From Lama guanicoe (taxonomy: Eukaryota), in contig MU053652.1 of NCBI GenBank assembly GCA_013239625.1, positions 5,447,902 through 5,511,901 on the forward strand: 64,000 nucleotides of DNA, read 5' to 3'. Below are positions 1 to 37,414 of the stretch, piece after piece. Each line of letters begins with the position of its first letter. Position 1 is the stretch's first letter. The position numbers and the translations under genes were made by a program. Below the pieces are notes generated by a model. That model made no database searches and was not told where the DNA came from. It worked only from the letters and a program-made list of their open reading frames with translations.

Positions 1-1222
1 GTCATCACAGTCCATCAGCTAACCACCCTTGTGTATTTGGTCTGCAGTTTCTGCAAAAATGTTGCAAACTTTGTTTTCCAAACAATTTGTTGATTAAAGC
101 GATCAACAACCTGAAGAAAATATCACCACTGGTGATTTTTAATTAACAAAGACTTTTTATCTTAGTGATTTTAGTTTTGTTCCACTTTCTTTGGCAAAGT
201 TTTTGTCTGGATTGTACGATATATAATTTCCTAGTGAGTGTTAGGACCAAAAGACAAATTAATATCAACATATAAATATTTAGGCTACTGAATATTTGTA
301 ATTATTTTTACATCCATTTATTTCTAACTTGTTCTCCAGCACTTAAGTGTTTGAAAGTTTCATTCTTAAATATATAGTACAGGAAAGTTCCAGTTCATTT
401 TCATCCATGAATCATCACATTTTTCATTTGTAAACATCTGAGGTTTTTCTGAAAATTAAACATTCCCCTATTTTTCTTTAAATTTTATACAAAGCACTTT
501 AATGATAGATGCAACTTAATTTTTCAGCTTTTTTTTTTAAAGACCACACACTTACTAAGGTTAATATGAAGGTAGTAAATAGCTTACTGATATTTTATGG
601 ATACAGACAATCCCTGCACAACCACTTATAATACTTTAAATATTGCTAAAAAAGGAAGATGGGGGTGTAAACCCTGATTTTTTTTTTCTCCCAAGTAAAA
701 TCTTAAATGACCACTTTAGATAATATTTGATTCCTACTGTAAAATTTGGAAAATAATGAATTTTTGTCCATTTTTGTAATCAAGATTTTAGGGAAAACAG
801 AAGTACATCTATCTTTAATGAAATATTGGGCAGGTTTTTGTGTATCAATATTTTGTACTTTTTAGGTAGTATTTTATTTTTTAGTAATTTTTTGTCAAAT
901 TATAATTTTAAAAGGTACAGCAGAGAATATACCATGCTTTTTATATAGGTTCACACCTGTACTTAGGAGGGACCCTGTCCATCTATATACTTTTTGTATA
1001 AAATTTTAAAATGTTGAAGATCCACAAGGTCATAATAAAATGCTTCTATAGCTAGAAAAACATTTACTCTTCCCAGTGCTTTGCACTAAAATATACTGTG
1101 AAAGGAAACTAGAAAGACTGTAACTGTTGCTGGAAATGTTCTATATTGAATGTACATGCTCTTGTTGGAAAAATGTACTATATGTGATGGAAATAAACCC
1201 GACTCAAAGTTATTTCAGCTAA
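1..1222 (+). other. Distal part of a 3' UTR of an unidentified gene whose coding exons lie upstream of the window
   Basis: AT/U-rich, repeat-free, no ORF. AATAAA at 1034 and 1192, upstream TGTA motifs, and several 8mer seed matches to conserved miRNA families. Confidence 0.75.
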
Positions 1223-18479: not shown

Positions 18480-18660
18480 TAATCAGGGAAAGCTCACTAG
18501 AATGGCTTTGGTCTGGGTCTTGAGGGATGGACAGCATTGAAATACATGAGAGGAGGGAGAAAACATTTTTTGATGGGTGGAATACCAAGAACAAAAGCAT
18601 AGAGGTGGGAACCAGTCATGTTTTATTAGGGGAGTTGAGAGTCCAGTTGTTTGGTGCAAA
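18480..18660 (-). mobile_element. L2 fragment, apparently continuing at ~19715-19860
   Basis: aatcagggaaagctc...gggtcttgagggatgg...aacaaaagcatagaggtgggaa, and later tttgagcaaaggaatgacag. Confidence 0.6.
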
Positions 18661-18679
18661 GTTCCTTAATTATGTTCCA

Positions 18680-19560
18680 TGAAAGAGAACTGAGGCAGTG
18701 CTTGGCAAATGGTATCATTCATTCCAGATTTGGGAAAAAATGGGCACTACGCCATATCTGTTCATCATGCAGCTGGATGAAACTATTGATGTCTCTCAGT
18801 GCATCAGGCTTCATGTTTTCTTGTGCTCTCTGATGTCTCCGATGAAGAATTTCATTTTAGGACTCTTTGGAAACTGGAAAGGCTGTCAGCATCTTCAAAG
18901 TAATACCTCTCCCTCTGTCTCTAATAATTATTCAGATGGCAGGGAAAAATGAAAGCATTCTGAGGGCAGATGTACACCTGTGATGTCAGGCACACATCAT
19001 GGTTTTCCTGCTTTTATGAGGAAGGGATAGCCACATGTCATTTTGCCTTGTTACTTTCCGTATCAGCAGCTGTCACCACCTTTCCAAGAGGTATTGCCAA
19101 GAAATAGGGGCAGAATATGATGGTTTTCTCTACTAGACAGAAAGAAATTTGCTGCCTTTCCAGGTCTTAATTGAACTTGAAGGCGGAGGAAATAATGTGA
19201 CTTGACTTTGACTTGAAATTCTTGGAGGAATTTAGTGTTCTAGTACACAGGCTACCTTAACATGACAAAGCATTCTATGGAATACTGCTTTGGTTGTATG
19301 TACCTTTATGAGTCAAGGATTTCAGTACTTGTTGCCATGGAGAAAAAAAGTTACAATTGATAATTAGAGATGATGCATGTGTTGTTATGTCAAAGACCAT
19401 ATTATAATTTCAATTCAAGGCAAATCTCACTGAGATTTACTATTGAGCAGTTAGAATCTTAAAAGTTTCTTTCAGTAAGTCATCATTTTTCTCTCATGAA
19501 AATAATAATGTGAGGGAGGCATAATCCTTTGTAAGTGTTATTATTATATATTGCTTATGT
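18680..19560 (+). mobile_element. Decayed, internally deleted hAT-Charlie (Buster-type) DNA transposon
   Basis: FIMQLDETIDVSQCIRLHVF resembles FSIQLDESTDVSxCAQLLVF. A frameshifted D-TPVMSG...GF...PHVI resembles the TDGAPAMxG...CxxH block. A C-terminal YLYES(x)GFSTL...DD-like dimerisation motif lies at ~19300-19435. Confidence 0.8.
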
Positions 19561-21109
19561 TCAGGAAATCAGCTTCCAGTGCAGTGAGATAAAGTATATG
19601 GTGTATGCACTTCTGTGCATGTTTCTGGAGGACAAAGCCAATATCTTTAATCAGAATCTCAGACTTGACTCCCCTTTAAGGTTAAAAATTAATAATTTAG
19701 CTAGTGTGGAGACAATAGGATGCTCTGGATGAATTTGAGCAAAGGAATGACAGGAAATTAGAAAGCTCATCTGAAGAATATGAGAAGAAAAGTTTTGGCA
19801 GGACTGTGGGAGATTTAGGGATTCAGGTTAGCCCCAGGGTTGGAGTTATCTGAATAATCTGAAGATAATTTTCTAGATAGAGCTTCTCAAAGGAAGGAAT
19901 CGCTTGTTACCTTTTTTTGTTCTTATAGTGTCTGACATAAGAGGCACTCAAAAATATTGAATTAAATTCAAATTGCTGTATGGATGATAAACCAAATGAA
20001 AGTTGGATGATAGCAACAAAAATAAATCCTTTTCTGTCTTATTTGTACTGAATTATGTTAAATCACTTGGTGTAAAATAAGGGTTTTGGAAAGATACTAC
20101 TTTATAAAAAGCTCATACACCCTTCTTCTTCAAACAGTTGGTTAACATGAACTTCTGGTCTCACAGGATTTTTTTTTGTATATTTTATTTCTGATAATTT
20201 TTTACTGAAGGTATGTTCTGAGACATGATAATTTCATCCAGTACCTTCAGAGGGAAGGAAACCTGCAGATTGGTGTGGTTGATTAGGTCATCATCTATTT
20301 AAGCGACATTCCAATAAACATCTTAAACTTGGATTTACTCATCTTTAAGTAAAATCAGTCTGACAACTCTGAGGTCACTTTGGTTAAAATATCATTGAAA
20401 CTTATGTTTTAATGGGTTTTCTATCAGTTTAATATCAAAGCCCTGGAATCCCATCCCTATGTTATATTAGTATAATTTTATTATCATCCTTATACATTTT
20501 TTGGGGATACAGTGTAGCAAAACAGATTCCCTAGGTATTAATAAGAGCTAAAAATTTAAATTTGTTATGATTGGAAGACCAAGATGTAAAGTTTAGAGTC
20601 TAGTTTATTGTAATATTTTAGCTTTACTCCTACCAAGTTCTTTAAAGTTAAAGAGAAAATTATTGAATGCACTGTTAAAACATTGGTATTATCGAAAACA
20701 TTTTTTCCAAAAGTATGATAATTTTTTTTAAAGCAAACTTTGTGTTCCCAAGTCTGTGGAGATTACAAGTTAAGTTTATTAGAATTTGTTAGAAGCCCAG
20801 AAAGCTTTTTTTTTTCTCCCTGAGGTAGAAATGCCTAATAGAGTGAAATAAGGTATAACTTCACAAAAGACAGTGATTTTAATTAACTGCATTATGTTTA
20901 AGGTATAAACTGCTCTGAAATACTGTGATTTACTCAGAATTTTTGAGGAAGATAAACTACTTCTGTGAACCATTCATTCATTCTTAGTATCTTTTGATGT
21001 CCACTGCTTTGCTACGCCATATAAAATGATTGTTTTCGTAAATTTGATTTAGGAAGTTAGAATGGAATGGGTACATAAGGAAGTGCTAAAATTCCTTTTA
21101 TTAAGTTAA

Positions 21110-21839
21110 TTTGTGTTGTTTTTATTATAAAAATATGCTTATTGTATACAGTTTAGGAAATATATAAAGATAACCTGCAGCCTCATCACCTGAAGTTAAC
21201 CACTTAACGTTTTGGAGTGTTTCTCTCCGTTACTTTATACATGCGTGGTGTGTTGTGTGTGTATACACATGTACACACATCAGTTTACACACATCCTCAC
21301 ACACTACAAATGGGGATGAAACTGACTTTTCGTTCTATCTAGTATACCTTTTCATATGATTAGATTAGCATTATTTATTAGCAGGTTAGTATCAACGATA
21401 AGAGAAAGACTAATCTACCGAACACATTGTTGGGTGTAGGATATGCTCAGTTTTTCTGTAATTTTTTTTCATTTTCTTTGCCTGTTATTTCATAGATACT
21501 GCACTGAAGACCCTGTATGGAAATTTTGCATAATTATTCCTTAAGGGAAAATTCTAAAACTAGAATATCTGAGTCAGAGTATTCAAAATGTTAAGGGTTT
21601 TGATACGTTTTACTAAATTACTTAAAAACTGTTTTATGACACTTCGGTTGGGTGTTGCTTTCCTGTGATCAGTCCACGTTTATCCCGTGTCTACGTGACA
21701 CACAGCGTGTTGGGCGGAAATGGCATCGCGCTGCGTCGGGGTTTGCGGCTCCTCGGTTAGCTGGGAGGCGCCGGGGCGTTGGTCCTCTTCTAACCGGCGT
21801 GTCTTTGTCTCTCTCCCTGGGGACCGCTGCCGCCCGTGC
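21110..21839 (-). mobile_element. L1M(E) fragment, left half; last ~150 bp GC-converted
   Basis: Antisense L1M motifs (ctagaatatctgagtcagag, aagggttttgatac), continuing as gggcggaaatggcatcgcgctg ~ ggtgaaaaatggtatctcattg. Confidence 0.7.
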
Positions 21840-22810
21840 GGGCCGAAGCCTCGGGAAGCCGTCGCCCCGCAGCGCCGCTGCCCTGCGCCCGGCCGCCCCG
21901 GGGAGCCGCCGCCCGCCCGCGGGCGCCGCCACCACGCGCCAGGCCGCCGCCAGCTGCCGCGCCAAGCTCCGCGAGCGCCGCCCTGAGCGCCGCGCCGCCC
22001 CGCACGGCCCGAGCACCTCGGGCCTCGCCGCGGCGCGCCTTTCCTCCCCGCCGGAGCGCTCGGGACTGCTCGCGGCCCTCAGCTGTTGGCAGGCCTCGCC
22101 TCACCCCGTGCTCTACCGGAACCCGCTTCCCCCGGACTCTTTCCCACGCAGCCCCTCAGGAGGACCGTGTGCCTTAGGGCCGGCGGGTGGGGAGGATGGC
22201 CTCCTTGCTAGTCGTTGCTGCTCGCAGAGCACTCCTTCCTCGTCCCGCCTGCCAGAATCCCGGCTTCTTTGAGAATCTTGCCGCTGGACAATACCATCCT
22301 CCTTGCCTCCTCCTCGTCATTTATCAAGCTCCTAGTCAGTTTCTTTCATTATTAGTTCTTCAGAGACTCGCTCCCAGTTTAGTCTTCAACTCAAATCCCA
22401 TCATCAACCAGCTGCTGACGTGCTCCACCCCACTCCCCACCCCGCTCCCCACCCCCGCCAGAAGATGGTTTTAATGTGTACAAACCCCAGTGACTATTGG
22501 GTGATCCCACACTATCTGGAGTTGTGTGATGCGTAACTGGTTAAACTTGAACTACAACATCCAGTCCCCTCCTTGTAACTTCATCCCCAGTGACCATTTC
22601 GTTCCTTCGGAATCAGCCTTGCTCCCACGGTTCTAGACTGTTATCCCAGGGGATCCACGGCTGGGTCCGCACTGAGGCGGGTGCTTCTCCCAGTCCTTGC
22701 CTGAGCGCAGTCGGGGTGTTTGCAGGCCACTGGACTCCTCGAATGCGCAGTTGTGGCGCGGGGACTTCTCAGCGGCCTGACTGAAACTTTCTTAGAACCG
22801 CGCCGCATGC
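21645..22810. promoter_or_regulatory. Orphan CpG island (core ~21700-22270)
   Basis: Extremely GC- and CpG-rich core in an AT-rich window, with GC boxes and an ETS/E2F-like GGCGGAAAT. No coding exon attached. Confidence 0.9.
22428..22456 (-). repeat. G-rich tandem repeat / putative G-quadruplex
   Basis: Five C-runs of >=4 on the + strand with 1-3 nt spacers (unit ~ctccccaccccg). Confidence 0.7.
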
Positions 22811-22995
22811 AGGCTAAGGCTCTTCTTGCCCAGACCCCTCCTGCATTAATAGGTGTCAGACTCGCATTTTTGTGTGAAGGCCCCGCCCTGCTCCTGATTC
22901 CTTCCCTTTATCCTCCACGGATGTTCCCTCAATAAAACTCTTGCAAGTTGAGCCCCGTCTTGCTGTCTGTTTCTAGGAGGGCCTGAGCTAATACA
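22670..22995 (+). mobile_element. ERVL-class solo LTR fragment (LTR16-like)
   Basis: ggtgtcagact...ctttatcctccac...caataaaactcttgca...cttgctgtctgtttctaggagggcctgagctaataca is a typical 3' end terminating in CA. Confidence 0.7.
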
Positions 22996-25205
22996 TTATC
23001 AGACATTCCACTCTGGTCGCCATCTTCCGGACCCCTTGTCCACTGAAAGTTAATTCATTAACCTCATTTCCCCCACTATTTTATCACCCTTGTTTTGGAT
23101 TCAGTTCCTTCCTTGTCTATCCTAGAGTCCATGATCCATCACTAAATTCATCCTCCTTGAAATACAGTGCTCTCAGCAGTCTTAAACCTCAGTTTCTTCC
23201 AGTTTACTTTCCTGGTTAAATCCCAGCTCTGGATGAACCTTACCATCTGCCTTTCATTGGCCTGACTGGGACAACTGGGCATTTTCTTTAAGAAAATCAC
23301 GCAACACGGCCAACTAGTTTTGCTTTGAATCCATTATCTCAAACCTCAGATTGGTGCTATTGTTCCTACTGTAGTCTCAATTTCCCACTTCTGAAATTAC
23401 TGTTTATACCTTTTCGTCTCCTCAAAATTTTCTCCTCCCTGTTTACTTTTAATTTCCCTTGGAAAATAGAAGATGTTACATACAAACTTCACCTTCCCAG
23501 CACAAGACTCCTCCGCCAGCAACCCAGCTACCTTGGTAACCATCTTCCTTTTTGTGACTGTGGAGGAAGTTTCAAAGGCCAGCCTCTCCTCTTGTGCTCT
23601 GGATCCTAACCCTTCTTGCCTTTTTCAAGGACTTTTTCTCCTTAGGTTTTCCCTTTGCTTCTGCATTATCAATCTCTGCCTTGAATGGATCACTCTCATC
23701 AGTCTGCAAACACGCTCCAGTGTCCTGCATTCTAACCAAACTTCCCCTTGGGCACATATTTTTCCATCTATTAGCCATTTCTCAGCTCTCCTTCATAACC
23801 AAACTTCTTTATGGAGTTATCCTTATAGAGTGTCTTCATTTTCTAATCTTTTATTCACTTTTCAATTCACAATGTGACTTCCCCATCACCACTCCTGTAA
23901 GTGCCCTTTAAAACTTACCAGTCACTTCCATATTACCTGATCCAAAAGGATACTTCCTTGTCCTCACCTTGACCACTCTCAGCTTCTTTAAATGTTCTCG
24001 CTTCATATTCAAGACACTATTCTGTCCTGGTTTTCTTCTTGCTTCACTGCTCACTCCTAGTGTTACGCTCTTTCTCCTGCATAACTTGGAAAAGGTGAGG
24101 TTCTTCACCTCCATTGGGTCCCTCTTTTCTTTCTATGTTCTTTCGCAGGAGGGTCTTAGTAATTTCCATGGATTTAAGTACTGGCTTTATGCTAATGAGT
24201 TACAAATTTGTCTCCCACTTGACTTTTTCCTCTGAGTTCTAGACTCATGTATCTAATTGCTTGCTTAATATCTTCCTTTGGATAACTCAGCTCTTCCAGA
24301 CTTAACATGTCCAAAATCTAATTCCTCATTCTCACCCTGAACCTGTTTTCCCCATCTTCCCTGTTACAGTAAAGAGCACCACCATCCAACCAGTTGTTCA
24401 AGTCAGAAACCTATGCATCATCCGTGATTGTTTTCATGACCTCTTCCCTCAAATAGACCAGCAAAATCTATCCATTTTATTCCTCAAATATATCTTTAAT
24501 CTGTCTGCTGCTTTCTATTTTCAATGTCATCACTTAATCCTGAACACGGTTTGTTTCTCACCTGATCATTGTGATAGCCAGCCTACCTGTTCTCCTGTTC
24601 TCACTCTTGACCCATGACCCACTTCAATACATTCTTGATAGAGTGGCAACAATGACCTTACTCCTAAATTGAATTGAGTACATAGTAGGATAAAATCGAA
24701 ATCCTTTACCATGACTCATGGAGTCCTCCACTATCTGACCCCTACCTATCTCTCCAACCCTATCTATCTATGCTCCCTCTCTTTATTGCACACTATGATG
24801 CAGACACACTGGTTCCTCCAACATGCCAAGATCTTTTCTGCACCTCAGGGGCTTAAAAATGCTGTTATCTCTGCTTAAGCTGCTCTTCTTGGCTAACCTC
24901 TCCCACACCACAACCCTTTAGATAACTGCTTAAATACAACATCTTAAGAAAGGCCTGCCCAGAGCATGGTTTGCAAATAGTCCTCCCATTTACTATCTCA
25001 CTTCTTTGTTTCTTTGAATTCCTTTTCCCAATGTGTAACGTTATTTATTTACTTTTGTGTGTGTGTGTGTTTCCCATACTGGAATGAATGAAAGAAGAGA
25101 CTGTGTCAGGATGTCTAGATTTTTCAACGTTGTATTCCCAGCCTCTAGCACAGTACCTGGAGCATAGTAGGTGAACAATAAATATTTGTTGAAGAAATAA
25201 ATGAA

Positions 25206-27400
25206 CACATTTGCTAATTTTTCTGTTGAGAGTTCACTTTTTATTGCTATGTAAGATCTCTTTATATATTAAAACCACTAACCATTTGTTTATTCCATAT
25301 GCTGCAGATATTTTGCTCCTTGTCATATATCTACCAATTTAATTCCTGATGCCTTTGACAAACAGAAATATTACATTTTTTATTTAGAGAAATCTTTTCT
25401 TTCATGATTTCTGCTTTTGGTGATGTGTTTGAAAAAGTCTTCTCCATCTCAGTGTTATATAAATATTCGTTTATGTTTCTTCTTTCTCTTAATTTTTTTT
25501 AGATTTAAATCTTTACTCCAAATGGAATTTATTTTTGATATAGATGTGATTAAGTCTCTCAATATTTATTTAGTTGTCCATCATCACTTATTAAAAACTC
25601 CCTTTCCATTGTTTTGAAAATCTTACATTTATCAAAGATTAAATTCTTAACGTATGCTTGGAGTGGTTTCTGAATTTATTATTTTTTTTATTTCTTTGTA
25701 TCCTTCTCTGTTCCTAAACCATGTTGTTTTAATTATTGTCATTTCATAATATTCTTTATTGTGATTAACTTTTTAATGGAGTAAGCATTACTCTTTCTTT
25801 TTCCAAATATTTTCAGCTCTATTTGTGCATTTATTCTTCCAGATAAACCTTAGTTTTATCTTAAACAACTTCCAAAAGACATTCTATTGGCATTTTGTTT
25901 ATAATTGCTTTAACATTAAGATTAATAGGGGGAGAATTTCCATCTTTGTAATATTAATTTTCCCATTCATGAACTTGTCACATGTCAAGGTTATTGAAGG
26001 CTTCCTATATGTTCCTCCATAATTTTGTAGATCCTCAATATTTCTTGTTAATTATATTATTAGGTAATTTATATCTTTGCTGGGATCATTTTCTCATTAT
26101 GTTTTGTAACTGGTTGTTCCTTGTTGGTCAAGCTATTGATTTCTGTATTTGGTCACTTTTCTGAACTCTTTAATTAATTCTTCTAGTTGATTTTCTTCTA
26201 AGTAGACAATCATTGTGAAGTGTAATTAATGGTAATTGTCTCTCTTCCTTTACAATATTAATACCTCATATGTTAAATAAATGATGGTATTAATTTTTCT
26301 CTAATTCCTGCCTTTTTAGGAATACCGTTAACATTTCACCAGCTTTTAATGTTGGCTCTTTGATTGAAATAGAATTCTTTATCAAGCTATGGAAGTAGTT
26401 TCCTTATTCAAGTATACTAAGCATTTTATTGGAAGTTGTTGTTGAATTATATTAAACATATTCTGGGCAACTAGGATGATCATATGGCCTATTGTTATAA
26501 TAAATTATATTAATAGATTTCTCAATTTTACAGTATTTCTGCATGAGGTGCATCCTAGTTCATCATGTGTTGTTTTTATTTTTTCTACTTTCGTATAATA
26601 ATGTTGAATCAGATCCTTACATTTTATTTGGGATAATTGCATTGGTATTCATGAATAAGATTGGACTGTAGTTTTACATTTTTAAAATTCTATCTTATAA
26701 AGTTTCAAAAAATTTCGTTCTATGCTCTAGGAGTATAGGAATTGCCTATTCATTGAAGGTTTGGAGGAAGTCATCTATAGCCCCAACCTTTTTTCAGGGT
26801 AAGTGAGTAGAAGATAATTCTCTGAAAAAAATTAAAATTTTCTTCTATGGTTTTGGCTTAGACAGGTAAAGTACTATTTCTTGAGTATCAATTTTAAAAA
26901 ATAACATTTTTAAAGAAAATTATGTGTTTTCATGGAATTAAAAAATCTGTTAGCAGTCTTTCATATATAATCTTATAATTAAAAATATTTTTCTCTATGT
27001 TTATAGTTGTAGCTCTTTTCTCATTTCTAACCTATTTAGTTGCATTTTTCTTTCTTTTATTAGACTTGCCAGTCTTTTAAAGGAACATTTACCTATTTTT
27101 TCTATTTTCCACATCATTAATGTAACTTTTAGTCTTTTAAAATTCCTTCTTCGTTTTAAATTTATTTTGTTGTTTTCTGAATGTTTCTTTGTAGTTAATA
27201 ACTTAGTTCATTGATTTTTATTTCTTTCTTATTTAATAATAGGACACATAAGGCTATACATTTACCTCTGAGCACAGTTCTGACTGCATCTCAAAAGTTT
27301 TGGTATGTAGTCTCTTAATTGTTGCTATTTAAAAAATAATGGATTATAATTACTGTTTTTATTTCATTTTTGACTGGTGTTATTTAGGATAGTGTTGTAA
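25206..27400 (-). mobile_element. L1M(E) fragment, right half (ORF2 region)
   Basis: tttgctaatttttctgttg...tctctttatatatt, tttagatttaaatcttt, gctattgatttctgtat, ttgttgaattatattaaa are antisense L1M ORF2 motifs. Confidence 0.85.
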
Positions 27401-34883: not shown

Positions 34884-35013
34884 GGGGGGAGGGTATAGCT
34901 CAGTGGTAGAGTACGTGCCTAGCACGCACAAGGTCCTGGGTTCAATCCCCCGTACTTCCATTTAAATAAATAAATAAAAACCTAATTACTAATCCTCCTC
35001 CAAAAAAAAAAAA
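34884..35013 (+). mobile_element. tRNA-Ala(AGC)-derived SINE of camelid type
   Basis: A box TAGCTCAGTGG 34896-34906 and B box GGTTCAATCCC 34939-34949. The tail reads aaataaataa-acctaattac-poly(A). Flanked by a duplicated (A)n-TTCT target site. Confidence 0.85.
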
Positions 35014-37414
35014 TTCTATTTCGCCATAGAGGAATAAACATAACTCATAATTTCCAGCAATGTACATTGGTACTAGCCTTTGAGCTTCAACCTACATTAA
35101 ATTTATTTCCACTTCAGCTGTATAACAGGAAAGAGAAAAATTCAAAGATAATTTTCACTTATGTGTATAAATGATCTCTGAAATGGCAGCTGAATCTGCT
35201 CTCTCCAGAGAGTATGTAGACTCAGAGGAGATGAGCCCTCATACTTCTCGAAATCAGGGCTGTTCCTTCCATAGTTCATTTATGTCTAGATGAGCTGTTT
35301 TGTTTTTGTTTGCGTGTTTTGTGTTTTACACCTTGACCTGGGTGGCCATAGGGCTGTAGTGTCACTGGCTTTGCAGCACACACATGATCACTGCTTTTCA
35401 TACGGTCCCCTCGTCAATCAGATGATGTACACTACTGGCACTACATGTTGAGTTTAACTTAAACAAAAGATGGTTAAACTATCTTCAAAAATCTTATCCT
35501 TTGTAGCATCTCAAAGCCTATGGGTCTATATGGAAGGATAGAGTTTGTTAAAGTTATCAAGAGGTACAATGTGAATAGAAGGAATAGGATGCGGAAAGAA
35601 TGATTTCCATGCTTAGGGTGCTTGGTAGACCAGGACAAGAGCAAGCACACCTCACCTGAACGCAGGATGAGAGTTTGTGTTTGCCTCAGAGGCTTACTCG
35701 GCCAGACTGCTCCCAGCTGAATAAAAGAGCGTATCGTGGTGTGTGCAGCTTCCGCTCACAAACTTGCACGCTCTTGGAGGTTGGCTTCCACGCTGCGCCG
35801 CAGCAGAATTCACTGGCACGGCCAAGTTCCATGAAGGCCGAGTGAGGTGCAGGTGACCAGAGAAGAGTAGAATGTGGAAAGCACTGGTGGTCAGCCCGCT
35901 GCCTTCTTTGCGTGCGGTTCAGATGTGGGCCTTGCCAGAATTCTATGGGAGCAAAACTTTTGGGACTCCGAGGGAGCTGAGGATGGGGGGCTGTTCTGTC
36001 CCTCACGGGTACCGAATGATTCCCAGGTTATGATTGAAAAAGCAATACATTCCATGTGGAAGGACATGGTCAACATAGTATGGGTTGAATGCTTATAAGA
36101 AATAATTATTTCAATAAAGAAAAATGTAACCCCAGGCTTGATAGAAGAGGTCTATTGGAACGCTCATGCTGCACATGAAGAGAATCCAGTCTGTACTAAG
36201 AAATTTAACAGAATTTGAAAGAAAAAGTAGGATTGCCCTATAATTTGTCTTGTCTGGTTGTTTAGAAGTCGGCCAGCTTCCTCAGGGCCCAGGAATAGGC
36301 CTAAACTGACCAATACACCCTCAGTCCTCTGTGAAACTTTTCTGGTTAAAACAATACATTTCCTGATCAGGGAAAAAAAAAACTCTTCAAAAATGTTATT
36401 CTGTGATTCAGCATTGAGAAGTTATTATGTTCAAAGAAAGGCTGAGGAACAGAGTACTAGGACAACATTTGATGTTAGTGATCAGGAATTCACTGTTGGA
36501 GGAATAACTAAAATTCTCTACTTTCTTGTAAAGCAAAACCAAGTGCTCCATGGTTCTTAAGGGAGGAAGTCCCATTAGCAGATGAGGCTATGGTATGTTT
36601 CCTCCCCAGACATGTGCAGAAGGGCTCTGTATTGCGGGCCAGGCAAGACCCCTGAAGGCAGAAAAATCACATCCCTTAGACAAGGGATAGAGTTTTAAAG
36701 CAATGAGAGAAGCCAGTAGGGCCAGTGACGCCTAGTACAGGCCTATCATTAAGGCATCAAACATGAATTTCTCAGAAACTTCCTGCTATCTTTGACTAGT
36801 AACTCCTTACCTTCCAGCAACATGTGATTTAGTTGAGGGAGAAAATTAAACTATGAGTTTACTTAAAGTGGCAAGGCTAATAAAACCTGGGCATTCTTTG
36901 ACTGGTCTGGAAATTATATTGCCAATGCAAAGGTTCTATAAACTATCAGATCTGGTGACTATCAGCTCACTTGACACCTTTTTCTAAATATAAAAATAAT
37001 TATTTTAATAAGTATGAAATAAAAAATCCAAATGATAAGAAAGCAGTGTTACTTCTTATTAGTACATAAAACAGTGGAATCCTGGGTTCTGAGAGATGTG
37101 CTCTTTTTTTTTTTCTGGAATCCTGAGTCAGCACAGTGTCAGGCACCCTGAGGGTGGCCAGTAAGAGGCTGTGGGCCGGCTGGAAGGGTGCATGGTGCAG
37201 TGGCCCCGGAGCTCAGTTTCTCACAGGCATGCAGGTGGGTTCCCTGTGGCTCTGTGGATTCCTATTAAGCTTTGAATTTGCTCCAGTTATTTCGCATACT
37301 AACCTGCGAGGACTTGTGGGCCTTATGGGAGGACACTTAGTTATCCAGAAGAAAGGAGAGGCAGTGACTCCAAGTGTGACATCTTTTCTCTTCTAGCACC
37401 AGCCCTGGGAGGTG

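Follow-up and report, generated by a model that had tools for sequence, protein, structure and literature searches.

We analysed a 64,000-nucleotide stretch of the Lama guanicoe genome (assembly GCA_013239625.1, contig MU053652.1, positions 5,447,902 to 5,511,901 of the forward strand), hereafter the window, which contains a CpG island (21645..22810) downstream of the zinc-finger gene ZNF800. The island is built around a selected element and is not a purely de novo or function-free structure; the leading candidate for this element is an alternative last ZNF800 exon. We propose that the island core is a conserved alternative last coding exon that would provide ZNF800 with a basic tail of 62 residues and that it lies within a halo of sequence shifted toward G/C by biased conversion. 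Judging from the sequence comparisons described here, the probability of this interpretation is about 0.65. The conserved and probably coding core is the new part, while the conversion story of the flanks is already known in kind.

By composition count over the 64-kb window the island is real. GC content is 0.61 at 21501-22000, where 54 CpG dinucleotides give an observed/expected ratio (o/e) of 1.16; 35 CpG (o/e 0.80) are found at 22001-22500 and 21 (o/e 0.58) at 22501-23000, as compared with an o/e of 0.24 for the window overall. The maximum GC content, 0.83, is reached in a 200-bp peak within 21801-22100. An earlier note on this DNA had reported such a GC and CpG peak, which these counts bear out, and three strings cited in it are found at the positions it gave. 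Neighbouring repeats that the note regarded as internal controls are valid in this role, since GC is 0.27-0.32 in LINE-1 and o/e is 0.18 in the body of the L2-like repeat and 0.46-0.58 in the long terminal repeat (LTR). Three CpG islands occur in 264 kb around this locus: the promoters of ZNF800 and GRM8, and the island at 21645..22810.

The gene upstream, located on the plus strand, was recognized by its long exon, which matches ESM Atlas clusters named ZNF800. These include a cluster of 727 residues with this name beside one of 661 residues, which is a lead only and may be non-mammalian. The first coding exon of GRM8 follows downstream, at about 87.6 kb. The canonical last exon of ZNF800 ends in the window (3' untranslated region, 1..1200, plus strand, AATAAA at 1034 and 1192). 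The long coding exon ends at L003:8551 (window coordinate -1449) with TG|gt, and the canonical acceptor at L003:9767 supplies the A that completes the stop codon TG|A. Because the last intron interrupts the stop codon, any alternative terminal exon can lengthen the protein.

A candidate for such an exon is found in the island, 23.3 kb downstream of the donor. A conserved putative 3' splice region (21789..21848, plus strand), lying in LINE-1 register, comprises a branch-point-like CTAAC (21790-21794), a pyrimidine tract (21800-21818) and an AG dinucleotide (21847-21848); no AG precedes the latter downstream of the branch point. Residues compatible with this AG are kept in 15/15 and 8/8 orthologous proteins. 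The putative acceptor would supply C, so that the interrupted codon would become TG|C (cysteine), and the phase of the donor fits the frame opening at 21850. The part of the putative exon that is present in the assembly extends over 21849..21973 (plus strand). In the orthologous peptide P0022 (residues 53-113), the corresponding 61 amino acids include 17 alanines, 13 lysines and arginines, and a single acidic residue. Downstream of the exon, AATAAA first occurs within the LTR (22931), as a candidate poly(A) signal. The exon begins with a 13-base motif (21849-21861) that recurs near the exon end in orthologues, where LGKP stands at both ends of the peptide. This points to an ancient duplication inside the exon, whose second copy falls in the part missing from the assembly.

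Orthologues of the island were obtained as spurious open frames predicted at the same locus in other mammals, by protein searches with read-through frames. The searches returned 12, 8 and 17 proteins (3 of the 17 were repeats). With a frameshift-aware script, 35 orthologous proteins were aligned to the window and single-base differences were inferred from their residues. One orthologue cluster includes a chromosome-scale assembly. A named orthologue is the sea lion (Zalophus californianus) protein XP_027430582.1 (P0020), so the island, common to the sea lion and many other mammals, is not lineage-specific. The sea lion model is annotated as "translation initiation factor IF-2-like"; it is an off-frame reading of the island and is unrelated to IF-2.

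Conservation is concentrated in the core. In 23 proteins, with the two nearest excluded, identity over 21789-21975 amounts to 0.89-0.90, as opposed to 0.43-0.65 in the flanks. Excluding the same two, identical residues number 365/407 in the putative splice region and 759/856 in the exon, and six neighbouring zones give 0.58, 0.57, 0.43, 0.65, 0.61 and 0.56. The sea lion protein alone displays the same contrast, with 56/62 core residues identical versus 20/30, 8/24 and 35/45 outside. We estimate that the core substitution rate is about 4-5 times below that of the flanks. The conserved block starts at CTAAC and ends just past the stop codon, with conservation falling immediately after TGA. No second genomic copy of 21849-22040 was detected, the only match being another CpG island that resembles it by composition. 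A 21-base core motif was found at two loci in JGI metagenomes, both chance matches, and a search of the ESM Atlas with the tail peptide gave no usable match.

Substitutions in the core follow one reading frame. In 16 proteins read in neighbouring frames, third and first codon positions of the frame at 21850 changed in the proportion 28:7 (p=5e-4; six further changes, three ambiguous and three multi-step, were excluded). For the distal repeat the corresponding proportion is 73:89, and the two differ significantly (p=2e-4). A/T bases are distributed over codon positions 1, 2 and 3 as 9, 6 and 1; the share of the third position, 1/16, is lower than expected (p=0.014), and such depletion is reached by none of 1220 overlapping GC-matched promoter windows. 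With the exception of P0021, frameshifting indels (21811, 21814-28, 21834 and 21838) are confined to the sequence before the AG, and indels of the exon itself (21876 and 21915) span 3 nt. Five of the eight in-frame proteins end at the stop codon, after 61 residues, and in all 36 off-frame proteins the residues are compatible with TGA. It is thus quite probable that the core is coding, and the earlier statement that the island has no coding exon is probably wrong. That the exon is spliced to ZNF800 appears likely. A distal last exon of ZNF800 did not turn up in a literature search, whose coverage left out subscription papers and databases; the predicted isoform may be present in RefSeq or GENCODE. 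Coding frames on the reverse strand were rejected: in one, A/T bases fall on third positions; in another, most orthologues contain an internal stop; and the remaining one would require its second codon position to vary most.

Several observations weigh against the exon. The acceptor is atypical: 55 nt separate it from the branch-point A, and the pyrimidine tract is followed by a GC-rich spacer. Over the initial two-thirds of the exon, changes at second positions (8/262 codons) are about as frequent as those at third positions (12/539), and third positions change less than neutral DNA would; the dN/dS ratio (non-synonymous to synonymous changes) of the frame is roughly 0.35. Counts pooled over 21789-21975 are flat (10/12/11), though confounded by unequal visibility of the positions; a non-coding assignment based on this flat count was dropped after counting per frame. 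Conservation is as high in the 60 nt of putative intron as in the exon, so overlapping non-coding constraint is possible. The stop codon is read through in three of the eight in-frame orthologues, and the poorly aligned P0021 has a 2-nt shift at 21934. Moreover, the orthologue evidence is indirect: the sequences are interrelated, were retrieved through a similarity to which the core contributes and were chosen as unbroken frames, so that frameshifts inside the exon are under-sampled. Polarity of changes among them was set by majority rule.

The assembly itself disagrees with the exon at its 3' end. At 21974..21995 (plus strand), about 54 nt are absent as compared with P0014 and P0032, the two nearest orthologues, and with other mammals. 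The gap puts TGA at 21984-21986 out of frame, and the frame continues to 22270-22272. It possibly represents an assembly error in very GC-rich DNA or a decaying allele. Two T-to-C differences of the assembly, at 21910 and 21929, are present in no orthologue read and may likewise be assembly errors. In the DNA runs listed, the share of 20500-24500 words that were present did not exceed 0.93. In RNA runs it reached at most 0.41, which is not evidence of transcription, as these runs may be DNA and the share does not tell which part is covered.

The left flank of the island derives from an antisense LINE-1. Instead of the consensus used in the earlier note, which had read this flank as antisense L1M, a profile was built from LINE-1 copies of the same genome with the locus masked. 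On the left, 21514-21622 matches profile columns 52-157; on the right, 25208-25547 matches columns 399-764 with 102 bits. In neither case was any of 100 shuffles as good. The two halves are colinear and the 241-column gap between them fits the 223 bases of 21623-21845, so that a single LINE-1 was interrupted near 21845. The stretch between the halves has no local nhmmer match to the profile. When force-aligned to columns 240-398, 21690-21845 beats shuffles (7/1000); with scores summed over 24 copies, its score is reached by 0/400 shuffles and by 0/264 GC-matched island windows. Homology is detectable in 21700..21788 (z=2.8, 4/400), and is not significant for 21789-21845 alone (44/400, z=1.3) or for 21623-21700 (613/1000). 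Three single old LINE-1 copies compared with the junction gave 17/1000, 199/1000 and 830/1000, two of them not significant. At sites where window and LINE-1 disagree, other mammals that deviate from the window carry the LINE-1 base in 10/22 cases. The comparisons thus support assignment of the left flank to the 3' end of antisense LINE-1 open reading frame 2 (ORF2), with modest significance.

Three segments of this element can be compared. The AT-rich segment left of the island (21100..21699, minus strand; judged by eye left of 21514), with GC rising from 0.32 to 0.44, serves as internal control. It is followed by the rewritten LINE-1-derived flank (21700..21788, minus strand). The same element resumes at the next profile column behind the inserted repeats (25206..27400, minus strand, GC 0.27). 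Relative to the profile, weak-to-strong (W>S, A/T to G/C) changes affect 46/85 sites of the left flank, and strong-to-weak (S>W) changes 9/51. Outside the island the same element displays 12/71 and 14/30 on the left, and 38/232 and 46/91 on the right (25208-25547); in old LINE-1 copies elsewhere in the genome, the W>S fraction is 0.10-0.22. With CpG sites masked, W>S changes amount to 30/69 in the flank versus 48/301 outside (p=2e-6), about 2.7-fold. The claim that almost every difference goes from weak to strong was therefore right about the excess and overstated its extent, as 46 of 60 differences do so.

Orthologues display the same bias. In both flanks (21700-21789 and 22130-22270), W>S changes were counted at 25/42 sites and S>W changes at 12/101 (p=1e-8), or 13/25 and 5/72 with CpG masked. 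The LINE-1 flank (21700..21788) contributes 9/13 and 4/34. In the right flank the bias falls with distance: 16/29 versus 8/67 at 22130-22270 (10/19 versus 3/50 for right-flank non-CpG sites) and 6/23 versus 2/21 at 22270-22480. The distal repeat (22990-24350) is unbiased (41/184 versus 32/131, p=0.69). The bias is hence limited to about 1-2 kb and is missing at 21514-21622, 22990-24350 and 25208-25547. Among 37 readable W>S sites, 26 have a strong base in every other mammal read, so most of the rewriting is old; nevertheless, the orthologue counts show that the bias went on after the lineages had split.

Unmethylated state reduces the loss of CpG and does not increase W>S changes (PMC4350167). 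Since the gain includes non-CpG sites, protection from methylation alone is insufficient as explanation, and on this key point the inference of the earlier note stands. Fractions of lost CpG-prone strong sites (7/29 in the flanks, 9/59 in the core and 3/4 in the distal repeat) bear on methylation indirectly and are small numbers. The bias itself is evident from the counts; it is highly probable that it was caused by GC-biased gene conversion (gBGC) at a long-lived recombination hotspot.

The peak of the bias does not coincide with the GC peak, where it had been expected to be maximal. In the core, W>S changes affect 4/33 sites and S>W changes 17/136, and the proportion of changed weak sites differs strongly from that in the flanks (25/42, p=3e-5). 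A neutral hotspot would convert A/T bases of the core first; since only 4/33 changed, the core is under selection. From the idea of an island created de novo by a hotspot, rewriting of the flanks thus survives, and a function-free GC peak does not, as the core evolves slowly and keeps its A/T bases.

It could still be argued that the island has no function at all and that the core is conserved only because conversion freezes a GC-saturated sequence. The strong W>S excess in both flanks, non-CpG sites included, suits this explanation, as do reports that gBGC lowers S>W rates (PMC11161765) and that it makes new non-genic islands in dog (PMC4350167). Yet the A/T bases that conversion should erase first have been retained, and freezing offers no route to codon periodicity or to sharp edges of the conserved block; for the core, this explanation is largely refuted and we regard it as very improbable. 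Still less probable is that the GC richness arrived with an insertion, be it an L2 with a natively CpG-rich 5' end or a fragment captured from another gene, and was then maintained by lack of methylation without any conversion. CpG-rich transposon promoters were indeed proposed as a source of orphan islands (PMC11170920), and for 21849-22040 the genome yielded nothing apart from the compositional match. Such an insertion may have been the seed of the island, but it leaves the non-CpG changes in the LINE-1 flank and the ongoing bias among orthologues unexplained.

Other objections concern the nature of the selected element. The core could be a conserved non-coding element, such as a promoter of an antisense or long non-coding RNA, an enhancer, or a minus-strand first exon ending with GTTAG (the reverse of CTAAC). 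As such it would keep the island unmethylated and attract recombination, its codon pattern being a chance or a relic. Conservation of the 60 nt before the AG, high conservation of all positions, second-position changes that are not rare, loss of the stop codon in 3/8 and the broken frame of the assembly all fit this possibility, and orphan islands are often enhancers (PMC11170920). On the other hand, the 28:7 proportion, the lack of third-position A/T, the distribution of indels, the edge at TGA and the phase of the donor all favour one frame, and predicted RNA folds of the core are weaker than those of shuffles on both strands (z +1.85 and +2.53). We therefore consider an exclusively non-coding core unlikely; coding and non-coding roles may coexist. 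Long non-coding RNAs named AC000123.x, which may lie near human ZNF800, were left aside, as the text of PMC6210054 has no coordinates for them. Translation of a stand-alone microprotein from the CTG at 21817, on a transcript starting in the island and not spliced to ZNF800, would use the same frame, and P0024-P0027 imply ATG at this place in four orthologues. It is hardly credible, as in P0019, P0035 and P0037 indels shift the frame in the stretch from 21817 to the AG, and the excess of third-position changes is absent before the AG. An alternative last exon of ZNF800 thus accounts best for the core.

According to this exon model, the ZNF800 donor TG|gt would be joined to AG 21847-21848 in place of the canonical acceptor, and the resulting TG|C would open the constrained frame, adding cysteine and a basic stretch of 61 residues rich in alanine, arginine, proline and glycine before TGA. 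The transcript would end at the AATAAA of the LTR. The site would have been GC-rich, and probably under-methylated, for a long time in many lineages. Recombination-linked gBGC would have fixed W>S changes in the LINE flanks and at third positions of the exon, and selection would have retained A/T at first and second positions. Nesting of the repeats suggests that LINE-1 came first, followed by the L2-type insertion with the core at its 5' end and then by the LTR, all three presumably before the split of camelids and carnivores. That the coding part derives from L2 seems slightly favoured. In a bolder reading, possible but less probable than not, the tail would have been born from non-coding transposon DNA: branch point and pyrimidine tract would stem from LINE-1, the frame from the L2 5' end and the poly(A) signal from the LTR, with the split stop codon acting as a switch. 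Conversion would have written the basic sequence and selection fixed it, yielding an undescribed ZNF800 isoform kept in many mammalian lineages for tens of millions of years, whose 3' exon would still be a recombination-prone CpG island.

If the exon is real, a conserved second C-terminus means that an isoform of ZNF800 has been missed. The locus also sets neutral and selected sites together under one GC bias, with the interrupted LINE-1 as a dated ancestral reference. It thereby allows measuring how conversion builds a CpG island and shapes new coding sequence.

Exonization of transposons is known to yield alternative last exons and new C-termini. The putative exon resembles such cases in its splice signals lying in antisense LINE-1 register, its candidate LTR poly(A) signal and the altered C-terminus; it differs in its age and in the purifying selection that acts on it across many mammals, in using an intron-split stop as a switch and in having residues shaped by GC bias. 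Islands ascribed to gBGC include GC peaks of dog (PMC4350167), the "BGC" class of Cohen et al. (as presented in PMC4121359) and orphan islands on phastBias tracts (PMC11170920). With these the present island shares its non-promoter nature and a local non-CpG W>S excess over about 1 kb. In contrast to them, it is common to the sea lion and more distant mammals, its LINE-1 substrate can be traced, and its centre is constrained and resists the bias. Unlike a new island of the dog type, it occurs in more than one order, and the biased part lies outside its peak. As a stable GC-biased site in many lineages, it recalls PRDM9-independent hotspots, placental hypomethylated promoter-like sites (PMC11161765), which the paper offers as an explanation of GC-rich islands. 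The present site differs in that it is apparently a 3' exon, not a promoter. A text search of PMC11161765 gave no mention of camel or alpaca.

ZNF800 itself is described as a widely expressed transcription factor connected with beta-cell development, cardio-metabolic traits and bone density (bioRxiv 10.1101/2023.03.17.531557). The same preprint links its isoform PB.9463.1 to rs62621812, which shows that ZNF800 has isoforms outside the annotation and that these are relevant to a trait. PB.9463.1 is, however, tied to a rare missense variant and set against the long DNA-binding isoform, and the available part of the preprint does not mention a distal last exon.

On the right, the W>S-biased flank (21996..22474, plus strand) is tentatively taken for the endonuclease-bearing 5' region of an L2. 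The endonuclease assignment of 22090-22350 could not be confirmed, as a second copy was never retrieved from the genome and there was no Pfam match. Searches of the genome by DNA, by protein and with PF14529 gave no other copies of an L2 endonuclease; all 20 of the 150 PF14529 matches that were inspected are LINE-1. Likewise, Pfam matched nothing significantly in 15 read-through frames from the LINE pieces or in 12 of the orthologous proteins, and none of 371 candidates is an intact L2-type protein.

The flank is followed by a solo-LTR-like insertion (22475..22995, plus strand) with TG...CA ends, CpG o/e of 0.46-0.58 and AATAAA at 22931-22936. It is common to other mammals; no second copy was found in the genome. 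The orthologous proteins P0001, P0007 and P0013 extend from the right flank into the LTR, and the nested structure is therefore old. At 22996..25205 (plus strand, GC 0.41, o/e 0.18), a dispersed C-rich repeat is present with its body and 3' end; this repeat matches other copies and was used as the unbiased control. We tentatively take it for an L2 and the LTR for LTR16, a solo LTR of ERVL type. Another copy of the C-rich repeat has a CpG island 600-1000 bases upstream (L032:200-650), which does not align with the island of the window (z 0.1 and -0.8).

Elsewhere in the window, Rfam and ARAGORN detected only the tRNA-Ala-like head (34889-34960) of a short interspersed element (SINE). This single SINE (34886-35010) has an A-rich tail and is the only young one noticed in the 64 kb; we take it to resemble a camelid SINE. 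A minor rise in GC and CpG follows at 35640-35960 (16 CpG per 500 bp, o/e 0.50), under island thresholds, and possibly marks a conserved element between ZNF800 and GRM8. Finally, a decayed fragment at 18650-19440 presumably stems from a transposase of the hAT superfamily (Charlie-type), judged by eye.

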